Origin: Paragordius varius
Taxonomy: Eukaryota > Animalia > Nematomorpha
Direction of reading: 5' to 3'
Assembly: GCA_964247055.1 (NCBI GenBank)
Contig: OZ176051.1
Location: 5,270,001-5,334,000 of the forward strand
Length of the DNA: 64,000 nt
In this document: positions 13,829-64,000 of the stretch, in pieces
Position numbering within the stretch: position 1 is the stretch's first letter
Layout of the letters: each line of letters begins with the position of its first letter
Notes under the pieces: model-generated
What the model was told of the DNA's origin: nothing
Database searches by the model: none
What the model saw: the letters and a program-made list of their open reading frames with translations, nothing else
Translations under genes and position numbers: made by a program

Positions 13829-13879
13829 GTATTATTGTTTTATTTTTTGTTTTTATAAATATATAGATTTTACATATTA

Positions 13880-16985: not shown

Positions 16986-16999
16986 GAATTGTAATCATA

Positions 17000-19900: not shown

Positions 19901-22007
19901 GTAAAAAGAGGGCTTAAATTAAAAAAGCGAGCCGACTATGTTCGGTGCAATCGAAAAGAACTAAACAAAAATCATATTTGAAATTGAATGGTCCATAAAC
20001 GTTCTCCGGAAAATTGTCTCGAAGACATGATTTCTGTGGAGTTCGTTTTCAAAAATTCCGTTTTTTAGACGAGATGGGCCCTAACTGGCGCTTAATTCAA
20101 GAAAGGGAGAAGCTATTGTCAAGCATTCAATAGTGTTTATATTCTTTCGACATTTGATGAATAGGTCTACCGGTTTTCCGGAAACAGATCACAAAGCCAG
20201 CATTTTCCTATTATAAATATATAGATTATACAGACAAATAAATATCTTAAGTTGTATCGCACTATATATTATAAAAAAACTTTTTTGGTCTGTATAATTG
20301 TTTAAGGGAATTACAAGTTAGTGTCTATATTTTTGCGAAAAAAAATGCATTTTACATCCTTTTTACGATATTATATATTGGTAAAAAACATAATTTTATT
20401 TGAAGCCTTAAACCGCTGATGCGCATTTTATGGACGCAAAAATCCAGCACTCCATGAAAACAATGTAGTCAATCAGAATCAACACCATAAAAAAGATTTT
20501 ACCGCCATGAATATAAAAATCCACAAAAAAATTCGTATCGAAGCGAATCAATAAATTCAGTAGAATTATATTGTTTTAAGCTGATGTTTATCTGACACAA
20601 CCATACAGTTTTTAATAATTATTAATGTCTTTGTGGGATCCTATTTAATTATGTAAAGAATATTAAAAAATATAAATTTTGTAGATGATTTAATAAATAT
20701 TATAAAAAGTTTGTTTAGAAAAAATAGAAAAAATTGTTTAGCAAGAAAATAACTGGATCGCCTCCATTGTAATACAAATTTTGATGCAAATTTTGCTGTC
20801 CTTAACATAAACATCTCTTCTCACTCCATACCATGTTTGGGCGCCATTGTTTGAGGGGCCCACAAAAGAATTGCTAACACCGCGACATGTGTCCTGACTT
20901 TCAATGACTAATTGATATGCCAAAAAATAAATATTTTTTTCTTCCCTTATAGTCAAATAATTTGGCGTTAAAGGCCTTAACTGACAGATAACATGGTTTA
21001 ATTGCAGCCCGGTAGTTTATATTAATGTTAAACCCCATATCTGCTGGATTAATGTATATAAACTTTGATTTTTATATCACTCCTTGGAAATGAGTTATGA
21101 TTAATGTTGTGGATTGATCTCTATGTGTATGACACGAGCTTTATTTACCTTTGCAAACAGCAAGACACAACTCCGACGGGATTACCTGTCAATCATGTAA
21201 GACAAAGACGTCCCGGGAAGTAAGGTCGGAATCGCTGATGCAGGGCTGGTTACCAATCTTTGGCATCTCCTTCCGAAGTTGTGAGTTGGTTCAAGAAGAA
21301 TCGTCGGTTATTTAACGCGCGTTAGAATCCTAGTCGGAAGTATAGCTGAAAAAATGTCGCACGAAAGAGTACCATCAACACTGATGTCCAATATCTCCAA
21401 AATTGGTCTACCTAAAAGGCCACACTCATTTAGAAGCAAATGATGTCCCCTTTTACACCAAAGATAAAATCCTGAAATAAAGTCTATGACTCAACATAGA
21501 CCTTTGTTACTTTGAGGAGTATGGACCTAATTCGTTCGTACGGTTATTTAATATCAAATATTGCTTTTACACACCTAACGCGGTTAAATTAACATTTCCT
21601 TTATTATATATATATATATATAGCTTATAAACCATACTAACTTACATTAACACACCTATAAAGGCATTTATTTATGTATATAGATACTAACTTCAAACCC
21701 AAGTTCCGATGGTTCCCGCTGTGAAGCTCCATGCGTTACGGGTGGGGTGACAGCAGGTGGACGACGATCTTTCGACGCTAGCTTTACTTGTTTGTGCAAA
21801 AAATTCATCGGGAATCTTTTCATCGCATTTTTTTCAATGAATTTTTAACAACTAATACTACAAGGTAATTAATGAATAATGTGGTTAGAAACATCAAATT
21901 ACATGGAGCTTTTTTATAATTATTAATCTAAAAATGATCTGTTTGTAGTTCCATCATTTTTAGACCTATTACACTGCGTACAAAATTAGGGCGGTGGTTA
22001 TAATAGC
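17000..22007 (+). mobile_element. Composite repeat with Helentron/DINE-like core (copy 1); paralog of 39670-43170
   Basis: Colinear with the 39.7-43.2 kb copy. It has a 5' (ac)tagctggccctgtgaggcttcg hairpin-type start, internal degenerate tandem units (~160/310 bp), and a ttt..(ta)n-tag end at ~21623. No Rep/helicase ORF was seen, so the family call is tentative. Confidence 0.6.
17636..18750. mobile_element. Non-autonomous CACT-terminal (CMC/CACTA-like) DNA transposon with 3-bp TAA TSD
   Basis: TIRs cactagacaacaaattt / aaatttgttgccagtg flanked by taa on both sides. The paralogous copy shows the empty site ctaaataatcg at ~40285. Confidence 0.85.
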
Positions 22008-22875
22008 CTGATGAAATAGGCAACCGTGTCCATAAAAAATAACCAGATGAAATATATATTTGATAGGAAAATATATCATGATTATCATGGTGCCTTTGGT
22101 TCTCGCACTTACATGATTTAATATTTACAGGTTTAATATAAGTGCTTCATATAAGAAAAATGGAAAATTTTGCGAACATTTTTTTAAATATAATTTTTTT
22201 TAAAAGCGAAATGCTTCATTCCAAAAAATATCACTAAAATATATAAATATATATTAGCTACATGTAAAAAGCAAAACAATATATTTAAATTTTGGTTTTA
22301 AGATGTGGGTTCAAAAGTCGCAATTTTTTTCGCTCTTATAAAATGGTCAGTTTTCTTTAAATAAAAACAAAAATGCCAATATTGCCCTATAATAAGGTTA
22401 AATATAAGCTAAATTATGATATCAATCAAAAATATTTTCAAAAAGGTATATTTCTAAAATATATTTTTTAGCAAAATTTTGTTGAAACCTCATACTATTT
22501 TGAAGGATGATGCAAAACGGTATAAAACCGCTTAAAGACATTATAAAAACAGTTTTGTCTTCATTATATTAAATGTAAATTGCGACGAATATTATGAGCA
22601 AATTAATTAAATTAGATTAAATTTTAAAGCGATAGAAATGCTTAGCATCATCGAGTAATATAATTTTGACCAACAAAAAAAATGGAAATTTTGCTTAAAA
22701 GTTAAATTTATAGCAAACTATTTAAATTTATTTAAAATTAAAGTTAAATAATCAAATTTAGTTTAGATGTTCTTTTAACTAACTTTGATTTTGATTGTTA
22801 ACTTATTGTTTAGCCTTATTATTATTATACAACAATCATAAACAATATTCTAAAAATTTACAAATCATTATAAAT

Positions 22876-24264
22876 ATGTTTATTGATTCTCACACATTGT
22901 GTAAGAACAAAAACGATTTAATTTCAAATCCGCTCAATGCAAAATACTACTTTTCACCAATTCATGATTTCATAAAGGAATTGCAGTTGAAGAATTCTAC
23001 AAATATCTTTCCAAATCAAAGAATAAAAGAAGTTAAACTCTGGGCTGATAGTCATTTGCATCCATCGAAGATAAACCCAGTGATTGGTAAAACATTAAGA
23101 CTGAGTGATTTTACAAATATCATTTCAAATCAAATTATAAAAGAGGTATACAAGGCTGATTTGCATCCATTGGACTTAAATCCAGTGATCAGTAAAACAC
23201 TAAGGCTGAGGGAATTGGCAAACCTCATTATAAATCAAATTATAAAAGATGTCAACAAAGCTGAAAGTCATTTGCATCCATCGAAGATAAACCCAGTGAT
23301 TGCTAAAACATTAAGGCTGAGTGATCATTTAAATATCATTACAAATCAAATAATAAAAGAGGTATTCAAGGCTGATAGCTATTCTACATCGGAGATAAAC
23401 CCAGTGATTGCAAAAATAATAAGGTTGACAGATTTTACAAATATCATTGCAAATCAAATAATAAAAGAGGTCAACAAGACTGATAGTTTTTGGCATCCAT
23501 CGGACATAAACACAGTGATCGCTAAAACATTAAGGCTGAGGGATTTTACAAACATCATTGCAGAACAAATAATAAAAGAGGTCAAACTCAAAGCTCATTG
23601 TTATTTGCATCCGTCAGATCTAAATCCAATAATTTCTAAAACATTAAGGCTGAGTGATTTTACAAATATGATTGCAAGTCAAATAATAAAAGAGGCCAAC
23701 AAGGGTGATGGTAATCACTCATCGGATCTAAACCTAGTGATGGCTCAAACATTAAGGCTGAGGGATTTTACAAATATCATTGCAAATGAAATAATAAAAG
23801 AAGTCAACAAGGCTGATAGTCCTTTACATCCTACCGAGACAAACCCAGTGATTGTTAAAATATTAAGGCTGAGGGAATTTACAAATATCATTGCAAAACA
23901 AATAATAAAAGAGGTCAACAAGGCTGGTAGCCAATTGCCTCCATCGGACATAAAAGTGATTGCCAAACCATTAAAATTAAAAGTTTATACAAATACTAAA
24001 GCAAATCATATGTTAAAAGACGCTATAATTATGGATCATCCCCATAATCAAACACAAAAAAGTTTTCATAAAAGTTTGAATATATCTAAACCGGAGAATA
24101 CTTCCGATTATAAAAGTAATGAAAGCCTAATTCTCTCCAATACTGCATCAATATTAAGAAAGAAAGTAAGATGGATAGATGATATAACACCAAATGAGGA
24201 AATGGTGGCAGCTAGAGAATACAAGCTGATAACCACTTGTCAAAATGGCAGATTTAAGAGATAG
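22876..24264 (+). CDS. Orphan tandem-repeat protein (462 aa from first ATG): 8 full plus 2 partial 35-38-aa repeats and a C-terminal SILRKKVRW motif
   Basis: Long open frame in 25% GC DNA. Repeat consensus TLRLxDFTNIIANQIIKEVNKADSxLHPSDINPVIAK; all length differences between units are whole codons. The ORF track starts at an upstream TTG (22795). Confidence 0.7.
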   Translation: MFIDSHTLCKNKNDLISNPLNAKYYFSPIHDFIKELQLKNSTNIFPNQRIKEVKLWADSHLHPSKINPVIGKTLRLSDFTNIISNQIIKEVYKADLHPLDLNPVISKTLRLRELANLIINQIIKDVNKAESHLHPSKINPVIAKTLRLSDHLNIITNQIIKEVFKADSYSTSEINPVIAKIIRLTDFTNIIANQIIKEVNKTDSFWHPSDINTVIAKTLRLRDFTNIIAEQIIKEVKLKAHCYLHPSDLNPIISKTLRLSDFTNMIASQIIKEANKGDGNHSSDLNLVMAQTLRLRDFTNIIANEIIKEVNKADSPLHPTETNPVIVKILRLREFTNIIAKQIIKEVNKAGSQLPPSDIKVIAKPLKLKVYTNTKANHMLKDAIIMDHPHNQTQKSFHKSLNISKPENTSDYKSNESLILSNTASILRKKVRWIDDITPNEEMVAAREYKLITTCQNGRFKR

Positions 24265-34880: not shown

Positions 34881-36489
34881 GTAAAATACAAAATATTTTC
34901 AAGGCAAATTTTTTTTCGAAAATATTGTTTTACTTGTTTATGTAGTTTATGTTATATTGGATATATTTTACAATGAAGCTTCTACTCTCACCAAAAATAT
35001 TATTAAAACTGTGCGTTTTTCTCATTTTCTGATATTAAGCACTTACCACAAAAGTGTAAATAAGGTTCTTAAATCACTGGTAAGAGCGCAAAACCAAAAG
35101 AACCATGATAACTTTAATACATTTTCCTACCAGAATATATATCTATATATATATTTGATCAAATTTTTCTTGTAGTATTTCATCACATATTTATTATACC
35201 CCCGATTTTAGTATGTATAGAGAAGTTACCATAAAAGTTAAATATCTTTTTTAAATCACTAGTAAGTTAAGGCCAAAAGATAGGAATCGTGATGCATTCT
35301 TAATTTGCTATATGGGAATTTCTATTACTATTGATTATATGCAGTGTGTTTTATGCGGTATATTCAAAATTATTAGAATTTATTTTATATTTGTAAACTT
35401 GGCTCATGACCCGTAATGGCCAAAGCCAAAAGCACCCTATTACATATTTCTACCCGAAAATATATCAAAATTATTTTTTTTCGCGCCAAAATTTATTTTT
35501 AATGTCTGAAATCCGTAAAAATAAACAAAATGCGATTTTTTGCACAGAAAACACACCATTGCATTTTTAAATAAAGCTAAAACCTGTCTATCCCGAATAA
35601 ATATATTTTTAAACTCTTTTGTTTATAAAATTATATGACAAAATATGGTATTTACGTTTATATTATTGTCGCAAAATCTATAATTCCTTTTACAGTTTAA
35701 TATTGTTATTCATGCATGTAATCCACATGATGGTTGTTTCAAATGGGCGGTAAATTAAAAAACCTGGCCATGTACAATGTATAAATACAAAACTTGAAAA
35801 GATTATAGATGATGCAGCTTATCAATTAAATCTAAATTTATCCCACTGTCATTTACTATTCTATCCTAAAGTTGATGAATCTCAATATGACCTATCGGAT
35901 ACAATTAGCATAGGTATGGTTTATTTAGTTTATATCTTTTATGATTGTTTATTAGAGCTTCTATTTTACCGTGTATATACAATTTAATACAAGCTACTTA
36001 TAGTTTTTTAAAGTTTTATTTTTATTAGATTTTTTTTAACTTTGTTTATGCATTGTTCAGTTATTCAATAGAGAATGAACTTTTTTCTAAGTTGTATTTT
36101 GGCATTAAGAATACTTTCTACCCTTGCATAAATAAATTTTAGTATAACAAAATATGGTTCTATAATAACAGTTGTTTAAAATCCGTAAGATAACGATAAA
36201 AGAAAATTATATAGAATTAAATGAAAGTATAATTAGAAATTATAAACGATATGTGAAACCCTTCGTTAATAGCAATCTCAGACTAGTTTCGTGCTTGTTA
36301 GCACTCATATTTATACTTTCATTTAATTCCAAATTTTTCTTTATCGTTATCTTACAGATTTTAACAACTGTTTTTACAAAACATAACCAATCCGTTATTT
36401 ACCATTAAAATATGGTTCTGTTTTTAAAAAAGCGTAAAGAAAAATTCTTACTCATCTTATAACTTTTGCACCAAACTACAATATACGGT

Positions 36490-37401
36490 GACATGAGAAC
36501 GGCTACATATAGATATTGCTGGCCCAATCGACGGTTATTACTGGTTGGTAACTATCGATAGCGCTACTCGCTGGGTGGAGGTGGATATGCTCAAAGTGAT
36601 TTCGACTCAGACCATTCTAAATTGCCTAGAAAAGCATATTGCCCGATTTGGATTTCCTCGACAAATCGTAACTGACAATGCCAGCTATTTCGCATCAAAA
36701 GAATTCGAATTGGTGTTACAAAAATTCAAGATTAAACACATCCGAGCCACACCCTATCACCCAAAGACCAACGGGTTGGTAGAAAAAGTGATAAAAACCT
36801 TGAAAAAAACAAATACTACTGCACTAAAGGCGAGTCAATGCATGCCTATGAAGCCATGAACGGTGTTTTATATTCCTACAGAACAAGCTTCCACGCGTCG
36901 ATAAAAAAACCCCTCCGCTTTGTTCCTAAAACGTCAAGTACACAGCCCTATCTCCTGGGTAAATCGACCCCATCTGAATTTATAGAGCATAAATCAGAAC
37001 CACGCCGCGAATTTCAGCCCAATCAACCTATCTACATAAAGAATGAGTTGAATAAGGGGTGGAGGCAGGGGCATATCATAAAAAGAAGGGGGTTCCTATC
37101 TGCGCCAACGATTAGAACATCTTGATAGAGACACTGATCCAGCATCGGGGGAAGATAACATTCCCTCTATTCTTGTCGGCCAGCCTTTACAGCGGTCTCA
37201 AACCACAGAATCTACCGTGGACACCACCTTCACAGAAACCTCGGAAACCAGAACGCAATCTCGCCTATCACCGGAGGAAAGTACCCTTAATCAGAGGGTT
37301 GTAAGAGAAAACCCAAACCCGGAAAGAAGATACCCGTTGCGCAAGTGTCAACCCCCCGATAGGCTAATCTTAGAAGGAAAGTAATGTAAGGGATTTTATT
37401 G
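36490..37401 (+). mobile_element. Ty3/gypsy LTR retrotransposon 3' end: integrase core and C-terminus, PPT and first 17 nt of the 3' LTR
   Basis: ERLHIDIAGP...VTDNASYF...PYHPKTNGLVEK (complete D-D-E, rve) followed by frameshifts; then RRYPLRKCQPPDRLILEGK*, PPT agaaggaaag, and LTR start TGTAAGGG at 37385. Confidence 0.92.
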
Positions 37402-37437
<36 letters not shown>

Positions 37438-37440
37438 ATA
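37402..37440. repeat. Interrupted (TA)n tract at the LTR/EVE junction
   Basis: (TA)n-TTT-(TA)n; the same interruption is present at 43575-43621. Confidence 0.9.
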
Positions 37441-38941
37441 TTTTGGATAGACATATTGTGTTACTGTCTTTTATTATTATCTGCAATAGAGGACAAGTGA
37501 CAACATGTCTCTTACATGAGTTTCCATCTTGGGCGGTATCCTTATCATAATTCAGTAACTGTCTTTTCATATCTTCGATTCAATTCATTTGAAAACCTCT
37601 CTCCCTTTGAAGCTGGAGATTCCCTTGGCTAGATCTCTCAAACATAGATTGTAAATTTAATTAAGTAATTTTTTCAATCTTTGTCAGGCAAATAAAAACT
37701 CTTCCTCTGTTAACAAATAAGCAAAATTTTTATAGAGTTTATCCCAGTAGTTGGGAAAACATCTACTAGTTTCTCACAAATTACATGATCCATTGATGAT
37801 GTAATAAATCGTCTCATTGAGCTTGTATTATAAGCGTCCCAAGTATTGTTTACCTCAGATATAATCTAGGAAAATTACTGATTTGGACGTCATGTTCCTG
37901 GGACTTTATCATCCCTATATATGGTTTTCATTCTATTTTTTTACTTGCTTCATACAATTTACTCAATTCTACCTTCCAAACATGCCCTGCTGATCTTAAA
38001 AATTCATCTCCTAGCCCTAATATTGAACAGGTAAAAGTTACGCTCTGTATGTGGTAATGCTTTTAAACAAACAATTGTTGAGTGACCAACACTTTAGCCG
38101 AATCCCAATAATAAAAAATCCTCCACAATGGAAATGAAGAATACTCACTCCCAGGCATTATGTCTTCCTCCCGTATAATCCTAGAATATGTACCTGCTCT
38201 ATTTCTCAAAAATACCCATCCTACAATTTCAGCTATTATTGAATTTCCAATTAAGCCTCCCTCTCCCAAAGCTTTCATTCCATTTTTAGCTGGGAGTTGT
38301 GCGCCACTCAGTGTAACAGCACTTGAAAACCTCTTTGCTATTTGTCTGTATGCTGTTTCTTTAACTGTGTATGCAGGTGCTAGTGTGCATATGGCAGTTG
38401 CCACCAAAAAATCTCTCAATGAATCTTGATTGGATCCAGTATATTTGTTTCTTCTTGTAATGCAGCTTCTTTCAATCTCTATAGGTGTATAGTATTGGTT
38501 CACTTGTGCCCAAATGTGAGGATATATCAAAAGCAAAACTGTCAATGCTTTCTTGTGATTAATAGACCACTAATAGAACAATTTCATAATTAGTTAAAAT
38601 ATAATGTTCTGTTGACACATTGGTTACTCTTGTTGATGCTGATTCAGTTCCCCCTGTGAGAAAAACTCCATTAATGCCTCTGTTAAGATGTCCAAACACC
38701 TTGCCAATACAAATTGTTGAGTGGAAATTGAGAATTCCACTCCCAACTTAAATATTACTTTGTTCATTCTGTAATGAAACACTCTGTTAAAAATTTGACA
38801 TTCTTATTAATGATTCCAGGAATATTTCATTATAAAGATAAACAAATTTGTAGCGATAGCACACTCCTTAACCCTGCTGGAAAATTGAAAAAAACTTTCG
38901 ATTGTTTGCTAATACTTATTGTAGACCCAAATGCTATCATA
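37441..38941 (-). pseudogene. Endogenous viral element copy A: decayed Mononegavirales-like nucleoprotein gene, putative ATG at 38801
   Basis: Joining frames gives ~470 aa: MSNF*QSV...DSLRDFLVATAICTLAPAY...FPLWRIFYY...SILGLGDEFLRSAGHVWK..LSKLYEA..KPYIGMIKSQE.D.QISNFPRL...LALQMASS. The PY..I..L..FP.L..G spacing matches the conserved central N motif of paramyxo-, filo- and pneumoviruses (recognised by eye). No introns; G-rich coding strand. Confidence 0.7.
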
Positions 38942-39654
38942 TCAATTTCCACTCAACAATTTGTATTGGCAAGGTGTTTGGACATCTTAACAGAGTCATT
39001 AATGGAGTTTTTCTCAACAGGGGGAACTGAATCAGCATCAACAAGAGTAACCAATGTGTCAACTGAACATTATATTTTAACTAATTATGAAATTGTTCTA
39101 TTAGTGGTCTATTACTCACAAGAAAGCATTGTTTGTAAAGCATTGACAGTTTTGCTCTTGATATCCTCACATTTGCGCACAAGTGAACCAATATTGTACA
39201 CCTATAGAGATTGAAATAAGATGCATTACAAGAAGAAACAAATATACTGGATCCAATCAAGATTCATTGAGAGATTTTTTGGTGGCAACTGCCATATGCA
39301 CACTAGCACCTGCATACACAGTTAAAGAAACAGCATACCAATAGCAAAGAGGTGTTCAAGTGCTGTTACACTGAGTGGCGCGTAACTCCCAGCTGAATCA
39401 GCTTTTGAAAATGGAATGAAAGCTTTGGGAGACGAAGGCTTAATTGAAAATTTAACAATAGTTGAAATTGTAGGATGGGTATTTTTGAGAAAGAGAGAAT
39501 GTTCATATTCTAGGACTATACGGGAGGAAGACATAATGCCTGGGAGTGAGTATTCTTCATTTCCATTGTGGAGGATTTTTTTTACTGGGCTAAAGCGTTG
39601 GTCACTCAACAATTGTTGATTTACAAACATTACCACACACAGAGTGTAACTTTT
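38942..39654 (+). pseudogene. Endogenous viral element copy B: inverted duplicate of 38033-38731
   Basis: Reverse-complement match from tcaatttccactc to gtaacttttg; peptides in ORFs 39416-39619(+) and 38063-38545(-) are near identical. Confidence 0.85.
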
Positions 39655-39669
39655 GATATATATATATAT

Positions 39670-42600
39670 ATATATATGGGTTGATAGAATTTAACATATA
39701 CCTATATCACAATATTATTTTTATAATTTCACTAGCTGGCCCTGTCAGGCTTCGCTGTGACGGAGTTTCATCAATTACTATTAATAATTTGCAAAAAATA
39801 GAGGAATAGAATAAATAAATATAAAAAACATTAAATAATGTCATTAATTATTCTTTTACGGGTTTTTGCATAGGCTCATTACTCTAAATTGACCATATTT
39901 AAACTGTTTCTTATGAAAGTTAATATTCAACTATCATTGGATTTATTTTAAGATTTTCATTTTACGAAATTATGGTTAAAAGTTTTATTTTAAAATTGTT
40001 AAGGGATATAAAAAGTAACTCATTTTTGGTTTCTTTTTTAAAGGAAAGAATGATATACAAATACGCCAGAAATGTGTTTAACTGAACTCGTATGTCTTCT
40101 TAAGTTTTTGTAATCAGTTCCAAAACCAATTTTTGTATGGCTTCTCAGTTTTTAAACCGGTAGACCCCTACCCATAGACCTATATGGAAAAGCGTTGAGT
40201 TAAATTATTGCCTTTACAGGGCAAATATGTATAATCATCTTTGATACCATCGTCTCATGGGTTATTTAAAAAATACCTCAACACTAAATAATCGTTATAT
40301 GATGGCGTATTTTTAGGGGCATAAAGGCCCCAAATTAACGGCTGATTAAAAACGCCTCACCTTTTGTTTCTAGTTAGGGGTAATATTTCAAGCTTTTAAG
40401 GAACTCATATGGCTTCATAATGTTCTCTATTAGCTCCAAAACAACGCAGTTTCTATATAGGGGGGCGCAGTTTTTTGGATAACCCCTTACCCAGGGTCAG
40501 GTATAAAAAAGCGTTGAGCATAATTTTGCCTTTATGTGGGGAATATCTAGATTTATCATGGATTCCATATGTTCCTATAAGTCTCAGGTTTTCTGAAATT
40601 TAGCTCAAAGGCAGGCTGTATCGATATTGTGACGCAGTTTTTAACCCTCTAAGCAGGGACGAAACAAAAAACGCTCGTTGCCTTAATTCGGGAAATACCT
40701 GGAATCATGATTGATTCCATATGCTCTAATTAGTTTTTGCAAAAATTGCCTCAAAACTAAAAAATCATTATGGTGGCGCATTTTTCAGGGCGTAAAGGGC
40801 TTAATTAACAGCTAATTTAAAAAACCACACGATCTGAATTTTTGCCATGTTACGGGTAATATTTTAAGCCCCTATTCAACTCATATGGCCTGATTATATG
40901 GAATTTAGCCCAAAGGCACGCTTTTTCGATATGACGGGGCAGTTTTTCGCGGGTAGGTCCTTACCCTACAGCCAATATAAAAAACGCACAACTAAAATTT
41001 TTGGCTTTTAACAGGGAAAACCTGGAACCCTCATTGAATCTCTAAGGTCTCATACTTTGGCCGAAAAATAGATTCAAAAAATTATTTTTGTAAACTTTCT
41101 TTTTTTAAAAATGGCATTTTAAAAGAGGGCCTAAATTAAAAAAAGCGAGGCGACTATGTTCGGTGCAATTGAAAAAAAGTAAAAGAAAATCATATTTAAA
41201 ATTGAATAGTTTAACACGTTTTCCGGAAAATTGTTTGTGGACTTCGTTTTCAAGAAAACCCGTTTTTTACACGAGGTGGGCCCTAACTGGCGCTTAATAT
41301 CAAAGAAAGAAGCTATTGTCGGGGCATTTAGTGTTTGACATTTGGATTTGAATAGGTGTACCGGTTTTCCAGAAACAGATCACAAAGCCAGCATTTTCAA
41401 TTTTTATAAAGATATAGATTATACAGACAAATAAAAAACTTTAGTTGTATAGCACTAGATATTATAGAAATAGTCTGTTTAAATTGATTAAGGGCATTAC
41501 AAGTTAGTGTCTTTTTTTCGAAAAAAAATGCATTTTACATCCTTTTTACGATATTATATATAAAAAAACATAATTTTATTTGAAAGCCTTAAACCGCTGA
41601 TGCGCATTTTATAGACGCAAAAATCCAGCACTCCATAAGAACAATGTAATTCAATCAGAATCAACACCATAAAAAAGATTTTTTGCCATGGATATTAAAA
41701 TCCACTAAAAATTTCCTATCGAAGCGAATCAATAAATTCAGTATAATTATAATATTGTTTTAAGCTGATGTTTATCTGACACAACCATACACTTTTTAAC
41801 AATTATTAATGTGTTTGTGGGATCCTATTTAATGTAAAGCATATTAAAAAATATAAATTTTGTAGATGATTTACTAGATTTTATAAAAAGTATATATTTG
41901 TTTAGCAAGAATATTGGATCGCCTCCATTGTAATACAAATTTTGATGCAAATTCGATTGCTGTCCTCAATAAAAACATCTCTTCTCATTGCGTACCATGT
42001 TTGGCCGCCATTGTTTGAGGAACCAACAAAAGAGCCTTTGCTAACACCGCGACATGTGTCCTGACTTTTAATGACTAATTAAAATGCCAAAAAAATAAAT
42101 ATTTTTTTCCTCCCTTATAGTCAAATAATTTAGCGTTAAAGGCCTTAACTAACAGATAAAATGGTTTAATTGCTGCCCTAGTTTATTTAAATGTAAAACC
42201 CCATATCTGCTGGATTAAAGTATGTAAACTTTAATTTTTATATCACTCTTTGGAAATGGGTTATGATTAATTTTGAGGATTGATCTCTATGTGTGTGACA
42301 CGAGCTTTATTTACCGTTGCAAACAGCAAGACCCGACTCTGACATGATTACCTGTCAATCATGTAAGACAATGACGTCCCGGGAAGCAACGGAATCGCTG
42401 ATTGAGCAGGGCTGGTTACCAATCTTTGGCATCTCCTTCTGAAGTTGAGAGTTGGTTCAAAGGAAGAATCATCGGTTATTTAACGCGGGTTAGAATCCTA
42501 GTCGGAGGTATGAAACATGGTCGCACAAAGGAGGAACGTCAACACTGATGTCCAATATCTCCAAAATTGGTCTACCTTAAAGGCCACACTCATTTAGAAG

Positions 42601-43170
42601 CAAATGATGTCCCCTTTTGAACCAAAGATGAAATCCTAAAATAAAGTCTATGATACATAGACCTTTGTTACTTTGAGGAGTATGGACCTAATTCTGTTTG
42701 TACGGTTATTTAATATCAAACATTGCTTTTACACACCCAACACGGTAAAATTAACATTTTATTTAATATATATATATATATATATATGTATATAGCTTAT
42801 AAACCATACTAACTTACATTAAACCTATAAAGGCATTTATTTATGTATATAGATAATAACATCAAACCCAAGTTCCGATGTGTCCCGCTGTAAAGCTCCA
42901 TGTGTTACGGGTGGGTAGGGACCTTGACGGCAGGTGGACGACGATCTTTCGACGCTAGCTTTACTTGTTTTTGTAAAAAAATCACCGGGAACCTTTTTAT
43001 CACATTTTTTTGTATGAATTTTTAACAAAATTAATGAATAATGTTGTTAGAAACACCAAATTACATGGAGCTTTTTGATAATTATTGATCCAAAAATGAT
43101 CTGTTTGTAGTTCTATCATATTTATAAGCTCCTATTACACTGCATAAAAAATTGGGGCGGGGGTTATAAT
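39670..43170 (+). mobile_element. Composite Helentron/DINE-like repeat (copy 2)
   Basis: Colinear with 17000-22007 but lacks the 1115-bp CACT insertion and one ~305-bp internal tandem unit. Confidence 0.6.
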
Positions 43171-43195
43171 TAGGGTTGTGCTGATGCAGGTCAGT

Positions 43196-43574
43196 CAGGG
43201 GCATATCATAAAAAGAAAGGGGTTCCTATCTTATGAAGTCCAAGACGAGGAGGGAATTAGCCGAAAACACGCGGATCAGCTACGCCAACGCATCTTGATA
43301 GAGACACTGATACAGCATCGGGGGAAGATAACATTCCCTCTATTCTTGTCGGCCAGCCTTTACAGCGGTCTCAAACCACAGAATCTACCGTGGACACCAC
43401 CTTCACAGAAACCTCGGAAACCAGAACGCAATCTCGCCTATCACCGGAGGAAAGTACCCTTAATCAGAGGGTTGTAGTAGAAGACCCAAACCCGGAAAGA
43501 AGATACCCGTTGCGCAAGTGTCAACCCCCCGATAGGCTAATATTAGAAGGAAAGTAATGTAAGGGATTTTATTG
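43196..43574 (+). mobile_element. Second Ty3/gypsy 3' fragment (SH3-like integrase tail, PPT, LTR start at 43558)
   Basis: GHIIKRKGFLSYEVQDEEGISRKHADQLRQR. Near identical to 37067-37401 but retains ~50 bp deleted there. Preceded at 43171 by a ~25-bp hAT TIR remnant (tagggttgtgctga). Confidence 0.9.
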
Positions 43575-43612
<38 letters not shown>

Positions 43613-43621
43613 ATATATATA

Positions 43622-44599
43622 TTTTGGATAGACATATTGTGATACTGTCTTTCATTATTATCTGCAATAGAGGAAGCCATTTGCAATGCAAGTGACAACA
43701 TGTCTCTTACATGAGTTTCCATCTTGGGCAGTATCCTTATCATATATTCAGAAACTGTCTTTTCATATCTTTGATTCAATTCATTTGTAAACCACTTTCC
43801 CTTTGAAGCTGGAGACGCTCCCTTGGCTAGATCTTTCAAACATAGATTGTAAATTCTATTAAGTAATTTTTCCTTGTTAACATCTTTGTCAGGCAAACTT
43901 AATAAGAACTCTTCCTCTGTTAAAAAATAGGCAAAATTTTTATAGAGTTTATCCCAGTAGTTGGGAAAACATCTACTAGTTTCTCACAAGTTACTTGATC
44001 CATTGATGATGTAATAAATCGTCTCATTGAACTTGTATTTTAAGCATCCCAAGTATTGTTCTTAGAGGACGACCATTTTTTGAAATAGTGTATACCTAGC
44101 AGACATAATCTAGGAAAATTACTGATTTGCAGGTCTTGTTCCTGGGACTTTATCATCCCTATATATGGTTTTTCTTCTATTGCTTCATACAATTTACTCA
44201 ATTCTTCTTTTCAAACATGCCCTGCTGATCTTAAAAAGTCATCTCCTAACCCTAATATTGAACAGGCAAAAGTTACACTCTGTATGTAATGTTTGTAACC
44301 AACAATAGTTGAGTGACCAACGCTTTAGACCATTCATAATAATAAAAAATCCTCCACAATGGAAATGAAGAATACTCACTCCCAGCATTATGTCTTTCTC
44401 CCGTATAGTTCCTAGAATATAAACCTTCTCTATTTCTCAAAAATACCCATCCTATAATTTCAGCTATTGTTGAATTTTCTATTAAGCCTCCCTCTCCCAA
44501 AGCTTTTATTCCATTTTCAAAAGCTGATTCAGCTGGGAGTTGTGCGCCACTCGGTGTAATAGCACTTGAACACCTCTTTGCTATAGTTTCACTTTAACA
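43622..44599 (-). pseudogene. Endogenous viral element copy C: C-terminal two-thirds of the N-like gene, 5' part cut by a hAT insertion
   Basis: Best-preserved motif region: EELSKLYEAIEEKPYIGMIKSQEQDLQISNFPRLCLLGIHYFKK. ORF 43543-43896 gives the helical C-terminus. Same junction with the LTR as copy A. Confidence 0.75.
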
Positions 44600-44600
44600 T

Positions 44601-46926
44601 CAGTGGTACTCAAACCGCGGGCCGCATGCGGCCCTAAGAGTGCTTTAAAATTGCCCTATTACCATATTGATAATCTTATTTTTTTATTGGTGAATTTTTA
44701 AATACACATAATCGAATTTTTGATTATTTTAAAATTAATTTATTTTAAATTTAATTTTTAATAATTTTTCTTTTTTACCCAATTTTAAATGTTTCCCTAC
44801 ATTAAATTGGTTCAAAATTTTGGCACACGTTGTTTCTGTTTCTATTTTCTTATCTATTTTGAAATTTTTATTGCATTCCTTTTTTGTATTCAAAAGCCTT
44901 TCACCCAAACTTGCATATACATATTCTTTTCATTATCCTGCATCATTTTTTATAACTCATTGCCATAAAATATTTTTCAAATCAACATCATTGAATTTCT
45001 ACCTGTTTTTTCCATAATATAAATTATATTCCTATTTTTTGATAAATTTACATAATATTTAAACATAAATTCAAAGGATGACATCTAATGCTAAAAAAAT
45101 AAATTATCCGATTCGCTTCTTTAAAAAAGAATGGAAAGAAAAAGTTTGTCGTTTTAAATAAAAATGTTGCTACCTGCCTTCTTATATGTAAGTACAACAT
45201 AATTATAAAAAAAATAAAATATGACATTTTACAATTCATCATTCTAATAAATTACCGAAAAATGATGATGTAAGAAAGGAAAAATATTAAAAGATTAAGG
45301 AATTATACCAGAAAGAAAAATCTATTATGTCCATAGCTTTCTCCCAGGAAAAAGCTGTAACATTAGCTTCGTATGAAATTATATTTTAGGAAAAAATATG
45401 AAACCGTTTACTCATTCCCAACTATAAAAGAATGTCTAATAAATGGTTGCACTTTTTTATTTGATAAATTCCATAATAATTCAACTCGACGCATTAAAGA
45501 TATGTCTAAATATATTTTAACAAAACATTATTGGCTCTAAAAAACTAATATTTAAGTTGCTATTGATTCTAGCACTGTTAGTTCAACACCCCAATGTGCG
45601 CTCTTCGTGAAATTTTCCAACGACAACATAATAAAAATAAACGAGGATATATATTTTTACCAATGAAATACCACGAAAGGAAGTTATTTTCTCGAAATAA
45701 TTAGCCCTTTTTTCGATAATAATGGTATATCTATGAAATAATTGGTTTCACAGATGGCTGTCTCTCTATGATTGAAATAAACAAAGGATTTATTACTCTT
45801 TTGAAAAAATATAAATTGCAAAATATTTTATCCTTTCACTGCTTTATTCATCAAAACTTGGTTTCGCGTATAAAGATAAATTTAGTAATTAAAACGGTTG
45901 TGAATATAGTTAACCACATCCGTGGCAGAGAATTCAACCGCCGTAAATTTAAAAACCTTCTGAAATATACAGAGTGAGTTTAATGATATTCTTTTGTACA
46001 CCGCTGTAAGATGGCTAAGCATTAGTTATTAAATAGATTTTTTGTTTTAAGACATGAAATCTATTATTTATAAAAGATAACAGAAACTTTGAAGAGGAAA
46101 TTAATAGTTACAAATAATGGGTATTAGCCTAACTTTGCGACATTATTTATAAACTTAGTATTTTTATTACAGGACTTCAAGTGAGCAAAAATAACCTAAT
46201 TAGCTAATCAAATATTTGTTTTGAAGAAAAATTAATTATATGTAAACAAGATTTTATAAAACACTCCTTTCCCACACTTAAAACAATTCATGAAGAAATT
46301 TACCGCGGAGATCAATTTAATAATAGACAATCATTTAATATATTAGTCTGATTCTTAAAACTCGTTGAAAATCCATGGCATATGGATATATCCAATATTA
46401 AGCAACTTGAGCATTTCGGGCAGGCGCATATATTAAAGAATTCGTAGATTTTAAAAATGATTCAGTTTGGAGGCTATATTCGAGGAGAACCGTAGAGAAA
46501 AAGATGTGTAGAGTTTTGGCAAGTATAAAAGAGCTCAAGTTATCCTAACTGTTTTTTCCTCAACTTACACGTGTGAGACGGCATAATCAAAAATTATGTC
46601 AATACATACAGAAATCGTCTAACCGATGATCATTGGACGACGTATTAAGATTGGCCTGTCATGAGGCTAAACCAAATTTGTTAAAAAATTGGTTATATCA
46701 AAATAAATGTTGTTATCAAAATATTTTAATTTTTTAAAATAAAAGGTGCAAAACATTTTGGCTGGATTTACATGCGATCCGCAAAAAATTTATTGTGCTG
46801 ATTTAGATTATAGTTATATGCATATGTGTCAAATAACTATGTAAAAATTGCCATTATAGGTTCATGGCCCTCGAAAAAAATCTATATTTTATTTGGCCCG
46901 TCAAATACTTTTGGCGAGTGTCACTG
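44601..46926 (+). mobile_element. hAT Buster/SPIN-like (GTF2IRD2-like transposase) decayed element, both ends present
   Basis: Ends cagtggtactc / gagtgtcactg. ORF 45768-45977 reads SFHCFIHQ..VIKTVVNIVNHIRGREFNRRKF, followed by VRWLS and FSSTYTCE remnants. No matching TSD. Confidence 0.88.
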
Positions 46927-52500: not shown

Positions 52501-54329
52501 TTCACATTTCGCAAAGTAAAAAATTCAATGTGGCTTATACATTCATTGGTTTAAAATAAATTTATATCGGGTAAACAGTTGAAATTTTATTTTATTATAT
52601 AAAATGCATAAAACATTTACGATGCCAAATATATTCAATCCTTAATTTTATCTCCAGAATTAAAGTTCATAAAGACTTAATTTTAAAACGGAGTTTGGAC
52701 GTTAATTTTGTTAAAAAGCAGACTAATCGATTTTTTAATCCTATTAAAACTAACAATACAGATCCAACCATACAGATTTCGAAAAGCATATTAATTCCTA
52801 GCAGTCCAGGATATTAATTAGAATCACATTTTCAACTCAACAATTCCGTCGGGCAGCATTCAAGAAAGATTAACGTATAGATAATATATTGTTTAATTTT
52901 TACATAGACTATAAAAAATACAAACACAATATAACCACCATTTACATTACAGTATGTATTTTAATGGTTGCTTATTTCACACTATAGTTGAACATTTAGC
53001 AACACAGTAGGGTATGGAAACAACAACAAATTGATGCCAAACACACCTTAAAATGATAATTACTCTGCCAATAATATTTTCAATCTATCCAACTAAAAAA
53101 ACAATTTAAAAAAGAAAAATAAATTGCATTTAGCATTTTTGCTAAGATTTTTGAAATAAAATATTTTTCCAAATTATAAAATTGATTTTATTTTGTTTTC
53201 TTAACTGCTTAAGAAATCACGGAGGGCGGCATGTTGTACACCTCTATTATAACATAAAATTATTGGATTCCAAACATTAGTGTAGCTATTCCTGAAAATT
53301 GCAATCCTTGTATTTAATTATACATATATATTAACACTTTATTTTTATTTTTTTTTGAAATTTTCCTCCTTAAACCAGTAAACAAACTAGTGATCTGAAA
53401 GTTGTTTTGGTAAAATCCACTTTTCCTGTATTAGAAAATAAACCTATAATCACAGTTTTATAACCTCTAGATTCTGTAATTCAGATAGTTCACACAATGA
53501 AAACCAGCAGCTTATATTAAAATGGGCTGGTGCAATATAAAAGCTTTCCAAATATTATTGATAATTTCCAACCATAAATACATGTATTTTGTCTGTTGTA
53601 TTCACGATATAAAAAATTAAGGAAAAAATGGCGGCGGAAAAGTTTGAGATGAAGATTTTTCCACTTTTATTTAAAAAAATATATATGCGCCTTAAAAGCC
53701 AAAGAAAGCACATTTTTAAATTTGGCCCAATGCCAAAACTATTTTAATATATTTTAAATTATAATTGGCCCTGGGATATAAAACTACCAAAGTTCATGAA
53801 ATATTGTATCAAATATTGATTCATACAACAAAAAGTTTTTTTTGTATTTCAATATCAATTTGTTTGAAATGAAGACCATTTTTATGTTAGGTGGATAGAT
53901 ATAATACAATTTGAAAACAGTTTGCTTTGGACCTTGAAAATTCACGCACAGTCCATAACTTAAAAATATTGACTTAACCGAATTTATCATGATAAAAATT
54001 GAGCATTTGCAATAAAATACTAGTTTTTACATACTACGTCTTTTATAAAACAAATAAAAAATATTGACTTTGGCAAAAATCCAAATGTCAAGAACATTTT
54101 TGACCGTAAAAATCAAATTATGTCAAATTTAATATTAAATTTGTATAATTTGTTAAATTTTTTTAATACAGCCAAAAATGAAAGAAAATTTTCAGCCTTG
54201 TAAAAACTAAAACCCTTAAATAAACAAAAATATTTTGAACAAATTAAACAAATTTACCAAGTTAATAATTTCTATATAAGGAGGCACATTTTTAATGATT
54301 TATAATTCACTTTTTTCTGATAAAATATC

Positions 54330-54630
54330 ATGAACCACATACTTGTTCTTGCTTCTCTGCTCATTGCTAATGTGCATTTGGTCGATTGTATGATAACAAA
54401 AAACATAGAGATTCAGGTGGGTACATCTGTATATGAAAGAGTTGTCAGTAAATTCAATGGGATGTCCAATGTCACCCTTCGGTTTTCTGGTAAAACTTTC
54501 GAATACACCAACATCACTTATTCAAGCCTGTTAGAAAAAAGTTTTACCGCTAAATATGCTTTGGTTGATGGGATGTATACAGTCCTAATAAATGGAACAA
54601 CAATTACTACCGGGAATATTGCTTTAATAC
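54330..54630 (+). CDS. Secreted orphan glycoprotein, exon 1 of 3; model join(54330..54630,54955..55458,56977..57194), 340 aa
   Basis: Signal-peptide-like MNHILVLASLLIANVHLVDC, beta-strand-like periodicity, donor c|gtaagt (phase 1). Confidence 0.78.
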
Positions 54631-54954
54631 GTAAGTTTATAAAAAACAAATTTATTTTATATAAGATAAGTGTTACAATTTTCCGCGATATTTGTTGGAG
54701 TAAATACAGCAGCTAATCACTTATTTCCCAAATCTTGTTTAAAAAGTGTATATAGAATATATATTCAAATTTTTTTTATATTTATTTATATCCTTTTATT
54801 GCCAAAATGCATATTCAAATTAAATTGGCACATCTTTCAAAAAATCGAATTGGCTTTAAAAATTTGAGCTTGTTTAAAATTGTGTGCTATATGACTAAAA
54901 ATACAACTACTTGACTAAAAATTATATAAAACTTTTAATTTTTTCTCATATTAG

Positions 54955-55458
54955 CTGTAACTGAAAGATACTCTATGTCGCCAGGTGGTAACGTTGATAT
55001 CTCATTCAAGCCTTTTGAATATTATTACTCTGATTGGATAATACAGGCAAAGTATATGGCTAAAGTTATCAACAAAAGTAATAATAAAACCAAAACATAT
55101 GAGCTATCAGCATTTGGATGGGTAATCCCAAGACTATACGGCCTTGATAATTTGGGAACATATGAATTTTACATCAATGGTTCCCTTATAAAAAATATCA
55201 TTTTTTCTTTAAGTCCCGTCACAGCATCTACTTATAATTCTTACAATAAACGCTTCGTTTATAATGACAACTGCTTCGCTCATTTTGAGGACCAATTATT
55301 AATAAACTCATGTCGGTTAGACTTAATCAACGAATTAAATCAAACTGTGCAAACGGGTATCGGAGGAATACAAATTAATCGCACCCTCGCTAAGAGTGAG
55401 AAATTCAGATTATACGCAAACAATGTGTTAATCCGTGAATGGAATATTAATCAAAAAG
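54955..55458 (+). CDS. Secreted orphan glycoprotein, exon 2
   Basis: attag|ct gta act gaa aga tac tct ATG joins exon 1 in frame; ends aaag|gtaagg (phase 1). Confidence 0.78.
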
Positions 55459-56976
55459 GTAAGGAAATATAACTTAATATTTAAATTTAATACATTCCAT
55501 AATTTATATTTTCTCCTCCTAATATTTCCATCAGTCATAAAATCAATTTTATTACATATATCCTTTTATCTAAATTTATTATTTTCATTTTTATTAACAT
55601 TATCGCTTAGATTTAGTCATAACAACCAACCCAAAGGATATGGCCCGAAGCAATGCCAATACTCAATTCGTAAGATTAAGTAAGAAAGCTTTTTCTTACA
55701 AAAATATATATAGCCCACCACGTTTTACTTGATAATTTTTTTGAGCTTTATACAAAATAAGTTTAATTTATCCACATGCAAATAACTTTTAGCGAAAAGT
55801 ACCATAAAATACTATCAATGTGATAGACCTACAAGCTTTTATACCCTCGGTTGGCAAAAGGACAAAACTGAAATCTTGAATTCCCTTTATGAATATGCTA
55901 CCGATATAAGGTCCTTTATGGAAGATAAAAGATTGGTATTAAGCGATCCCTTCTGGTCTATTTCGCACAAAATATTATATTTAATAAAAGGAGACTCCAT
56001 GCACGAAATCACATTACAACCACAAACTTGCCCAAACAGAACGCAAGGTATTATAAAATAAAATATAATAAAATATTTTTTATGCCGGTGGTAACTTAAA
56101 TCTGTTTAAGCTCTCACTCCTAACCTTATTAGACGCCACGGGTGTCTATAAAACGGATGTTTCAACTATTTATTACCGACATTTTGGGCATACACCCTTA
56201 CTCTAGGCGCTTTAGAGAGCTCTTATCCGATTTAATAGAAATTATTTTGTCGGGTTCTTGTCTTTTTTTCAACTAAATATGCGATTCCTGCGGATTAAAA
56301 ACTTTCGTGGAAATATTTCCGGTAAATATATGAGTATAAGTCGATATTTCTAGGTATCTGCTGCAAATTGTTAATAATGATTCAAATATAAATAATTTAT
56401 TTGGATTCGGTCATTTTAGGACACCTTTCGAGATTTAATTTACAAAGCCAAATATGTATAAGTTTTTTTAAGAAAGTGTCAAAGTAGTTTGTTTATTCCA
56501 TATAATTAACATGAAGTTGTTGGCTTTATAGAGCATTTACGTATAGGCCCATTTAAAAATAGAATGGATGTTTTTGCATTTAGTTCGGTGAAAACTATTG
56601 AGCCATCTAGCCCCTGTGTTCAGCGCCATTTAGCGTTTTTAACTTACTTGAATCGATTTTCATAAAAATATAACTTGTTGGACCAAATTATCTAATCTTT
56701 GGAATTAGATATGTGATAAGAAGAGAATGCTTTTAAAATATTGACTTTTGGGTACAGTTCGACCTTATGTATAAACGCTTCCGAAAAATCGAGTTAAGAT
56801 GGGAAAATTGTATCCCCTTTTAATTCATTAAAAACCATCAACTTTTATGACATAGTTAAAAACTATTTAAAAATATAATTCCAAAATCATTTTTTTGATC
56901 ATAAAAATTTTCTTTCCTTGCATATTCTTGCCTAAAATATATTGTTCATTTTAAAGTAAAAAAATTATTTTTCTAG

Positions 56977-62626: not shown

Positions 62627-64000
62627 AATTGGTACTCACCAAAAAAATTTGACGGGCCAAATAAAATATATTTTTTTTGGAGAGCCATGAACCTTATAAT
62701 GGTAAATATTTCATAGCTATTTGACACATATGCACATATTTATACTCTAAATCGGCACAATGAATTCGTAATCCCATGTAAATCCAGCTAAAACTCGTTT
62801 TGCACCATTTAGTTAAAAATAAAAAATATTTTGATAACAATTTATTTTGATATTAACCAATAAATTTGGTTTTGCCTTATGAAAAGTCAATCTTAATACC
62901 TCGACTATATGATCATCGGTTAAGCGATTCTATATGTATTCTTGGCATACTTCATTTTTAAATATGCCGTCCCACACATGTAAATTGAGGAAACAGTTAG
63001 GATAGAGCCGATTTTTTTATATTTTCATATTATTTGGCACATCTTGCCAAAACTCTACATATCTTTCTTCTCTACGATTCTAATTTAAAGCCTCTAAATT
63101 GAAATCATTTTTAAAATCTACAAATTCTTCAATGATATGCGCCTGATCAAAACCGAAATGCTCAAGTTACTTGATATTGGATATATCCATATGCCATGGA
63201 TTTTCAACGAGTTTTAAGCAATTTTTAATATTTCTTAATTCTTGAAATATAAATTTCATTTCATTAGATAAAAATGTTGAATGATTGTCTATTATTCTCC
63301 GCGATAAATTCCATATTTTCTTCATGAATCGTTTTAAGTGTTGGAAAATATAGGACTGTTTTATTTATAAAATCCTGTTTGTTATATTATAAATTTTCTT
63401 TAAAAGCAATTATTTGATTAGTAAATTGGGTTATTATTTTACCTTGACTTGCATAAAAAATAAGTTCATAAGTAATGACGCAAAGGTAGGCTAATACCCA
63501 CCATTTATCGTTATTAATTTCCTCGTCAAACTTTCTGTTATAATTTATAATTAATAGAATTTCATGTCTTAAAACAAAAAATCTATTTAATACTTTGCTA
63601 AGCTTAACCAACTCACAGCGGTGTACAAAAGAATATATTAAACTCACTTTGGATATCTTTCAGAAAGTTTTTGAATTCACGACAGTTGAATTCTCTGCCA
63701 CGGATGTGGTTAACTATATCCACAACCGTTTTAATTACTGAATTGGGTGATTCATCTTTTACACGCGAAACCAAGTTTTGCTGATTTATAAAGCAGTTAA
63801 AGGATAAAATATTTTTCAAATTATATTTGTTTTTCAAAAGAGAAATAAATTCTTTGTTTATTCGAATCATAGAAGCCATCTGTGTAGATCGAAACCAATT
63901 TTTTCATAGATATACCATTATTATCGAAAAAAGTACTAATTATTGAGAAAATCACTTCCTTTCGTGGTATTTCATTGGTAAAAATTTTCAATATTCCTCC
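62627..64000 (-). mobile_element. Second Buster/SPIN-like hAT copy, running off the right edge
   Basis: Reverse-complement paralog of ~45650-46920. ORF 63613-63879 reads VIKTVVDIVNHIRGREFN. End ggtactcaccaaaaaaatttgacgggcc. Confidence 0.88.

Follow-up and report, generated by a model that had tools for sequence, protein, structure and literature searches.

Organization of the locus

The window, that is, the whole 64,000-nucleotide stretch of DNA analysed, contains three copies (A, B and C) of a broken gene, which were located by self-BLAST of the window and pairwise alignments. They are homologous, intronless and decayed, and lie where an earlier note had recognized them.

36497-37384, plus strand: decayed 3' end of an LTR-retrotransposon pol, with the integrase core followed by a C-terminal frame (stop at 37382-37384)
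37370-37384, plus strand: purine-rich tract, a likely polypurine tract as judged from its site between the ORF end and the TG start
37385-37441, plus strand: likely 3' LTR start, 17 nt from TGTAAGGG on, then (AT)n at 37402-37441
37442-38941, minus strand: copy A, the longest fossil copy, with a family match at 38548-37725, two in-frame stops and several indels
38732-38941: loop of the A/B inverted repeat, 210 nt, the 5' extreme of the viral or unassigned sequence, occurring once in the window
38942-39654, plus strand: copy B, a fold-back inverted duplicate of 38033-38731, its 3' end truncated by a repeat block
39656-43170: repeat block separating B from C, with a second occurrence at 16997-22004 and its own AT run at the start
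43193-43557, plus strand: second retrotransposon 3' end with a purine tract (43543-43557), 278/283 identical to the one before A
43558-43622, plus strand: second likely LTR start and (AT)n run, recognized from the sequence
43623-44598, minus strand: copy C, the 3' two thirds of the gene, with a family match at 44285-43941 and two in-frame stops

The likeness among the copies is 92-95%, pairwise alignment giving 653 matches and 33 mismatches with 7 indels for A versus B, 829 and 59 with 13 indels for A versus C, and 299 and 25 with 6 indels for B versus C. The terminus of copy C abuts another repeat, starting at 44602, and a sequence search for a terminal inverted partner of the repeat 3' of copy C found none. 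No homology was found for the loop at 38732-38941, and Rfam gave 0 matches over positions 1-44600. The fossils are embedded in host DNA, being flanked by an integrase remnant and host repeats, and the window also harbors a host NIF-domain gene (9907-13900). A host exon was assigned through the ESM Atlas to a eukaryotic NIF phosphatase.

Sequencing runs from three studies contain pieces of the copies, those from two of the studies at low depth. Contig depth on the copies is far below that on the neighbouring repeats (the block at 39656-43170 is covered by very many contigs), depth here being no measure of copy number. No RNA run is among the listed runs that match the copies, which has no bearing on expression.

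Protein family of the copies

A phmmer search with one frame of copy C against 1,835,955,588 representatives returned seven matches (best E 8e-9), five of which form one unnamed protein family (pairwise E 1e-19 to 1e-34); the other two were rejected as leucine-rich-repeat false matches. When the profile of this family was run against six frames of the whole window, all five matches obtained fell within the copies (best 1.8e-21 and 5.1e-21), and hhalign of the family against the fossil frame gave 98.6% over 115 columns at 30% identity. The copies belong to this unnamed family, with 24-30% identity to their relatives. The alignment extends beyond the query, residues 226-407 of relative P0005 aligning with copy A at 38410-37862 (tblastn E 6e-18 including the next piece). 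The peptide quoted in the earlier note, ELSKLYEAIEEKPY...FPRLCLLG, is present unaltered in copy C. P0005 is encoded on a contig of 11,491 nt, near the artovirus genome size of ~12 kb, and P0008 on one of 508,908 nt, so some relatives are genomic.

Other searches were negative or at chance level. Pfam gave one DUF at E 0.093 with four frames of the copies, and no N family at E<=1 with either the copies or the relatives. PDB sequences yielded three chance matches (E 0.44-0.84), and a profile search of them two. A word-indexed homologue search recovered 0/278 candidates at near lengths, 0/1950 at longer lengths and, with the profile, 1/7995, namely the query itself. A related-locus search of viral and metagenome contigs gave no match, and an ESM Atlas search with P0005 gave no usable one.

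Reading frames and decay

The main frame of copy A carries its own stops at 38065 and 37930, and copy C has copy-specific stops at 44213 and 44042, the two that had been named earlier. A stop-free run of 168 codons in copy A was equalled by 2 of 2000 mononucleotide shuffles. None of four comparisons between copies revealed a synonymous excess (p 0.75-0.97), and the copies have diverged evenly and in a neutral-looking way. The stops, the indels and the lack of synonymous excess indicate decay after integration; the locus is now without capacity for a whole protein, in agreement with the earlier view that it no longer codes for one.

Two frameshifts had been regarded as shared between copies. 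The change of frame after ...INSIK is indeed common to A and C, and the family match stops there in both; this supports a break common to both provided that the tail frame belongs to the same protein, a link that the sequence weakly suggests, the tail frame having weak homology at most to the relatives (one of 36 pair tests against relatives gave 0/300, but the frame concerned was not that of the tail). The TYRD* break in A and B proved unneeded: the two copies differ at this place by a small indel, the main frame of A is open across it and weakly resembles a relative (16/2000 shuffles, best of nine tests), and the TYRD frame showed no resemblance to the relatives (1247-1983 of 2000 shuffles).

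The MSNF start and the length of ~470 aa proposed earlier were unsupported, as 0/6 tests of 38540-38945 against the N-terminal third of the two long relatives were above chance and the full-length relatives have 605-691 aa (628 and 691 aa in the two long ones). Some 450-500 codons separate the likely start from the AT run, and the fossil gene is probably not full length.

Structural link to artoviruses and the nucleoprotein fold

Artoviridae have an unsegmented genome of ~12 kb with five ORFs, U1-U2-U3-G-L. When the model of P0005 was compared with BFVD by Foldseek, five matches at E<=0.001 were obtained (5e-17 to 2.5e-13), all of them artovirus or artovirus-related proteins of first-ORF size: those of Lepeophtheirus virus LS24 (661 aa), PpNSRV-1 (620 aa), Beihai rhabdo-like viruses 1 and 2, and Beihai barnacle virus 8. 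The sixth match had E 1.7e-3. Identity of P0005 to the five named viruses is 16-21%, with TM-scores of 0.32-0.34. The lengths of 661 and 620 aa are those given for ORF I of LsNSRV-1 and PpNSRV-1 in passages of PMC6394706 and PMC5344506. Chuvirus origin, which had one weak match (E 0.054), was dropped, as was, after the artovirus structural matches, a qinvirus/yuevirus lead (sections of PMC10496375 and PMC6932829).

The P0005 model is of mediocre quality (mean pLDDT 51, pTM 0.35) and confident only at about 345-570; most of residues 1-343 have pLDDT <50, leaving the N-lobe without a confident model. In VIA-align, six of the 50 listed matches cover model residues 337-471, and five of these six are N proteins: mumps (7ozr; Z 6.9, rmsd 3.6, 108 aligned), PIV5 (5wkn; Z 6.0, rmsd 3.7, 103 aligned), Ebola (6c54/5z9w; Z 5.4, rmsd 4.3, 118 aligned, and Z 4.7, rmsd 4.8, 109 aligned) and Marburg (5f5m; Z 5.3, rmsd 4.3, 113 aligned). 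The C-lobe region of the relative thus aligns with these solved proteins in one register, at Z of only 4.7-6.9, a range called common for helical folds, in which cyclin D1-CDK4 also falls (Z 4.7, residues 337-471). Compared with solved N proteins, the relatives have an extra N-terminal part of ~200 residues and a long helical tail. When the model was searched against the PDB with Foldseek, nothing reached E<=0.001 (Lloviu N was at E 0.56 and Ebola N at E 0.69). In a wide VIA search the 50 listed matches, all other than N, were taken up by the helical tail (508-620), so that this result is no exclusion. A single-sequence fold of a copy A frame reached pLDDT 32.7, at which its Foldseek result is meaningless.

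Altogether, the models lend moderate support to a Mononegavirales nucleoprotein fold in the C-lobe of the relative, and the family is predicted to be the artovirus U1 family with such a C-lobe. The fossil gene is, with high confidence, viral and N-like, and its donor was very probably artovirus-like, being linked transitively via the relatives and not by direct comparison with a named artovirus. The earlier note's proposal of a divergent mononega- or chu-like N fossil is upheld for a mononegavirus and narrowed to an artovirus-like one, the chu-like part falling away. The core claim also withstands the refuting condition set in that note, since the family matches artovirus first-ORF proteins as well as, in its C-lobe, solved N proteins of Mononegavirales, and no cellular or transposon protein accounts for it.

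The first ORF of artoviruses, U1, is itself a predicted nucleoprotein. It has been presumed to be N by position (part of PMC5344506), its function is listed as unknown in the ICTV profile (PMC7011699), and a passage of PMC6394706 states that it has no characteristics of known nucleoproteins; neither PMC7011699 nor PMC6394706, in the sections consulted, contains a demonstration of RNA encapsidation or oligomerisation. The gene-start and gene-end words of LsNSRV-1 are absent from both ends of copy A, with a single match in its interior; such signals vary between members, and the ends of the fossil may have been lost.

The retrotransposon junction and probable capture of the viral gene

The element beside copy A has a Pfam rve match on 36497-36856 (E 2.4e-13), and we take it to be Gypsy-like by its C-terminal motif. 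Copies A and C both start past a purine tract, after 17 nt and an (AT)n run, with polarity opposite to that of the element. The likely LTR start TGTAAGGG occurs twice in the window, each time preceding a fossil copy; the window holds no second LTR to confirm it as such. The flanks of A and C differ at 5/283 positions and the viral parts at 59/888 (Fisher p 8e-4), and since the flanks are more alike than the viral parts, a single simple duplication is no sufficient explanation. By computed folding, 38340-39340 could form a hairpin of -678 kcal/mol. The earlier note had overlooked both the junction with the retrotransposon and the fact that B is a fold-back.

The locus is best explained, with a probability of about 0.78, as a U1-derived endogenous viral element from an unsampled artovirus-like mononegavirus, which the Gypsy-like element next to it probably captured with its reverse transcriptase. 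Capture by this particular element is, taken separately, fairly likely. While synthesizing plus-strand DNA, the enzyme would have abandoned its template at the AT run just within the 3' LTR and resumed synthesis on the viral N mRNA toward the mRNA 5' end, giving copy A antisense to the element. The new strand may then have folded back on itself to prime copy B, the two sides of the joint having 2 nt in common; that this happened at the time of capture has slightly less than an even chance. The element-plus-virus unit would later have been duplicated 6.2 kb away, giving copy C, and later repeat insertions would have truncated B and C. Transcription of A+B from the LTR or by read-through could yield a ~700-bp hairpin, a possible source of small RNAs.

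Alternatively, the viral cDNA may stem from a different reverse transcriptase and have patched an AT-rich break in an already resident retrotransposon, B and C being ordinary later rearrangements. The junction does lie within an (AT)n run, a fragile type of site of which the window has 10 runs of 16+ nt, and its polarity is contrary to the common copy-choice pattern; moreover, divergence between A and B (33/686) is not above that between A and C, so that B is not demonstrably the oldest event. This account is nevertheless rather unlikely, as the junction is <60 nt from the purine tract, the start site of plus-strand synthesis, and the far side has no LTR remainder, the AT run past B being that of a different repeat block.

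It is improbable that the donor N gene came from another family of Monjiviricetes (nyami-, xinmo-, lispi- or chu-like) and merely found artovirus U1 nearest in the library. The low identity at each step (24-30% from copies to relatives, 16-21% from P0005 to named viruses), weak BFVD matches to mivirus, anphevirus and xinmovirus proteins (E 0.054-0.13) and a fossil span shorter than 605-691 aa would fit this; however, the five artovirus-type matches are ahead of all others by ten orders of magnitude, and the two long relatives have artovirus-like lengths.

A non-viral origin, as a processed host pseudogene or an accessory retrotransposon ORF, is already largely refuted and very improbable. The attachment of the fossil to a retrotransposon, the 508,908-nt contig of P0008 and the lack of a Pfam N family match would agree with it, but no cellular family was matched, the strong structural matches are solely RNA-virus proteins, the ORF is antisense to the element, and genome-borne relatives are expected if they are fossils too; host-annotated look-alikes of ORF I are known from Daphnia and Dendroctonus (passage of PMC6394706). 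Finally, virus reads or a collapsed repeat mis-joined to host DNA during assembly can hardly account for the locus, for even though none of the listed contigs spans the whole stretch and the contig at the A/B joint extends 30 letters beyond it on the shorter side, one below the threshold, the copies have separate stops and indels with no synonymous excess, and exact contigs from the runs of three studies lie on the copies, one of which, from a second study (39552-39760), runs from the end of B into the flanking repeat without a difference.

Comparison with known systems

Among known systems, artovirus ORF I/U1 is the closest, the strong structural matches of the copies' family lying solely there and the two long relatives being similar in length. 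It differs in being intact (605-661 aa), whereas the fossils are broken, with a span of some 450-500 codons; its identity to the copies, via the relatives, is 16-30%, and artovirus genomes carry other genes, while the locus has one viral gene only and the window contains no L.

Fossils of this kind are already published for Hymenoptera and Lepidoptera, which makes the present one less new than had been implied. Wasp genomes contain 39 Artoviridae-derived elements, 19/39 of them U2 (part of 10.1101/2022.11.16.515002), and RdRp-like elements near Artoviridae occur in Lepidoptera (part of PMC12548735). These are the same kind of object, but mostly derive from U2 or L; here the gene is probably U1 and the donor far more distant.

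LTR-virus recombinants are documented in portions of PMC6797480 and 10.1101/127498, which also describe, in Aedes aegypti, part of a viral N gene attached to a Ty3/gypsy-type element amid dense repeats, as here. The same portions give 543/614 LTRs in Aedes with the same polarity as the nearest fossil, the opposite being the minority. Unlike the piRNA-cluster fossils of Aedes aegypti, the present locus combines opposite polarity, a junction behind a purine tract and a fold-back copy of ~700 bp.

Implications

The locus is a record of a past mononegavirus infection, the nearest sampled relatives of which are just 24-30% identical. Because this distance is beyond the reach of Pfam, PDB sequence and word-indexed searches, standard fossil screens are likely to miss such a fossil. 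The structural comparison adds model-based support of moderate strength for artovirus U1 as a nucleoprotein. A more far-reaching version, in which the donor was a deep artovirus sister in an animal group without a recorded mononegavirus, the locus is a frozen reverse-transcription intermediate kept as an LTR-driven antiviral hairpin-RNA locus, and U1 is shown to have the N fold, is speculative and unlikely as a whole. Because the junction past the purine tract is preserved together with the fold-back copy, the mechanism of capture can be tested directly, as can a small-RNA function that the hairpin may have. If the host is not an arthropod, the known host range of the artovirus-like group would be widened.

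Three decayed copies of one probably viral gene

Self-BLAST recovered three mutually related stretches in the window which, together with pairwise alignment, bear out the three homologous copies described in the earlier note. By pairwise alignment they are placed as follows:

37442-38941, - strand, copy A
38942-39654, + strand, copy B, an inverted duplicate of 38033-38731
43623-44598, - strand, copy C

The same alignments gave 95.2% identity with 7 indels for A-B, 93.4% with 13 for A-C, and 92.3% with 6 for B-C. Copy A retains a stop-free run of 168 codons (equalled in 2 of 2000 shuffles); in the frames matching outside proteins, stops stand at 38065 and 37930 in A and at 44213 and 44042 in C, and most breaks are private to a single copy. 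Substitutions between copies are spread evenly over codon positions, with a synonymous excess in none of four comparisons (A-B: 7 synonymous vs 24 non-synonymous, expected fraction 0.26). The copies have therefore drifted apart as non-coding DNA and do not represent independent captures from different viral strains.

Protein family and structural evidence

No match for the copies was found in Pfam, among PDB sequences or in two word-indexed homologue searches. Exhaustive phmmer with one 123-residue frame of C gave seven matches among 1,835,955,588 representatives, two of which, leucine-rich-repeat proteins, were dropped as false. The remaining five (P0005, P0007, P0008, P0009 and P0011) bear no informative names and match each other at E 1e-19 to 1e-34. 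Copy A (38410-37862) aligns with P0005 residues 226-407, beyond the query frame of C, and a profile of the five relatives gave five matches over six frames of the window, all inside the copies; the profile match to C is partly circular, as its frame had selected the relatives. P0005 sits on an 11,491-nt contig, near artovirus genome size; P0008, whose contig measures 508,908 nt, may be a fossil too, lodged in the genome of another eukaryote.

P0005, folded with the other four relatives as alignment, gave a model whose mean pLDDT is 51 and whose confident part spans about residues 345-570. With this model, Foldseek found no PDB match at E<=0.001; in BFVD five structures passed that threshold (E 5e-17 to 2.5e-13), each an artovirus or artovirus-related protein of first-ORF size. 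From the protein length we infer that one of the five viruses, Lepeophtheirus virus LS24, is LsNSRV-1, and we take Beihai rhabdo-like virus 1, another of them, to be an artovirus. Among the 50 VIA-align rows shown, most lie on the helical tail and six cover residues 337-471, the part matching the fossil best. Five of the six are N proteins (mumps, PIV5, Marburg and two from Ebola; Z 4.7-6.9, 103-118 residues, rmsd 3.6-4.8); the other row is cyclin D1-CDK4 (Z 4.7). Because three virus families agree in one register, the model, with middling scores, supports reading residues 337-471 as an N C-lobe.

The observation in the earlier note is real and its reading right in outline: the locus works like an endogenous N-gene fossil, probably an artovirus-like one of U1 (the first artovirus ORF) derived from a remote virus that is so far unsampled. 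Assignment to Artoviridae proper depends on the L phylogeny; the donor is called artovirus-like here.

Reading frames and gene ends

Some details of that proposal changed. The frame does change after ...INSIK in A as well as in C, and in each copy the family match stops at that point; the break counts as shared if the tail frame belongs to the same protein, for which support is weak (profile E 0.0018 against 15 frames; nothing from hhalign). A second shared break (TYRD*, A and B) is unneeded, since the main frame of A is open at that place and it is this frame that shows similarity to a relative (equalled in 16 of 2000 shuffles for the best of 9 tests). Outside support for a start at MSNF was not found. 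The relatives have about 185-205 residues ahead of the first recognisable motif, and in copy A about 90 codons lead from the same motif back to the MSNF ATG and about 135 to the A/B joint. The tail match stops at the AT run (profile position 531 of 593). Given this short 5' span and early end, the fossil was probably cut at its 3' end and perhaps at its 5' end as well, or the donor had a shorter protein.

Retrotransposon junction and origin of the copies

An integrase remnant on the + strand (Pfam rve, E 2.4e-13) extends through a purine-rich tract to a stop at 37384 and into TGTAAGGG..., after which come an (AT)n run and the viral gene in antisense. The 17 nt starting TGTAAGGG are found at two places in the window, both ahead of a copy. 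The tract would be a polypurine tract and the TG after it the start of a 3' LTR of a presumably Gypsy-like retrotransposon. In the simplest account, reverse transcriptase would have jumped onto viral mRNA during plus-strand synthesis; alternatively, a minus-strand jump may have reached genome-sense RNA, or viral DNA may have been repaired into the AT run. In Aedes, fossils are reported to cluster at Ty3/gypsy elements and to arise through recombination during reverse transcription (10.1101/127498, PMC6797480); 543 of 614 LTRs there share the polarity of the nearest fossil, whereas the Paragordius varius locus has the opposite polarity.

The retrotransposon flanks of A and C (37118-37400 vs 43291-43580) are 98% identical without indels (5 of 283 sites differ), whereas their viral parts are 93% identical with 13 indels (59 of 888 sites; Fisher p 8e-4), a difference for which gene conversion in the flank might conceivably account. 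A stretch of 210 nt separates the start of copy B from its mirror arm, and the joint shows 2 shared nt, a spacing and overlap that fold-back priming would be expected to give. A transcript over 38340-39340 is predicted as one long stem (-678 kcal/mol, an energy without shuffle control). The repeat block ending B starts identically at 16997 and C ends at another repeat, starting at 44602; because both end at repeats, B and C were likely cut after formation.

Independent sequencing evidence

Part of the stretch is present in four runs from three studies, of which the best-covered may be the source sample and hence not independent. All three copies carry exact contigs; one from a second study links B to the flanking repeat, and at the A/B joint a contig matches exactly but falls one letter under the bridging threshold. 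The runs also depart at 43731, 43735, 43884 and 44124 from the base common to A and C, and a form lacking 92 nt of C was seen in three runs; there is thus at least one further allele or copy. Over 43679-44373, three runs (X1-X3) contain a fossil version that matches neither A nor C. Two runs labelled as two other organisms (X3, X4) hold exact pieces of 36300-44650 at depth 2-4, from co-sampled DNA or close relatives.

Other features of the window

A spliced NIF-domain phosphatase gene with a very long first exon, presumably CTDSPL2-like, lies at 9907-13900 (+). The 489-codon open frame at 22795-24264 (+) holds about nine tandem repeats of ~37 residues (111-nt period) and gave sub-threshold Pfam rows only. 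A large duplicated repeat block with ~150-bp internal subrepeats (16276-22004 and 39668-43170) has very many matching contigs and includes a hAT dimerisation remnant (16635-16805). At 45653-46919 and 62634-63985 two transposase-like stretches, both decayed and 77% alike, lie in inverted orientation; we take them to be hAT-like, and Pfam support for this was not found. Two open frames at 54324-55472 (+) have no Pfam match, the first looking secreted from its hydrophobic N-terminus.

Comparison with known fossils

Reports describe 39 artovirus-like fossils in Hymenoptera genomes, mostly U2 (10.1101/2022.11.16.515002), artovirus-like RdRp-like fossils in Lepidoptera (PMC12548735) and ORF I look-alikes annotated as host in Daphnia and Dendroctonus (PMC6394706); Artoviridae, a growing family, is given as two genera (PMC12451637). 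In the openly accessible literature we came across no report of an N fold for artovirus U1; one RdRp paper turned up on artovirus nucleoprotein structure and one review on hairpin-type fossils, and 'arto' is absent from the main text of a structure survey of negative-strand nucleoproteins (PMC10888975). The locus is a new example of a known fossil type, in which the junction with the retrotransposon is well preserved and one copy is folded back; its significance would be heightened if the host proved to lie outside the known host groups and the hairpin to yield small RNAs.
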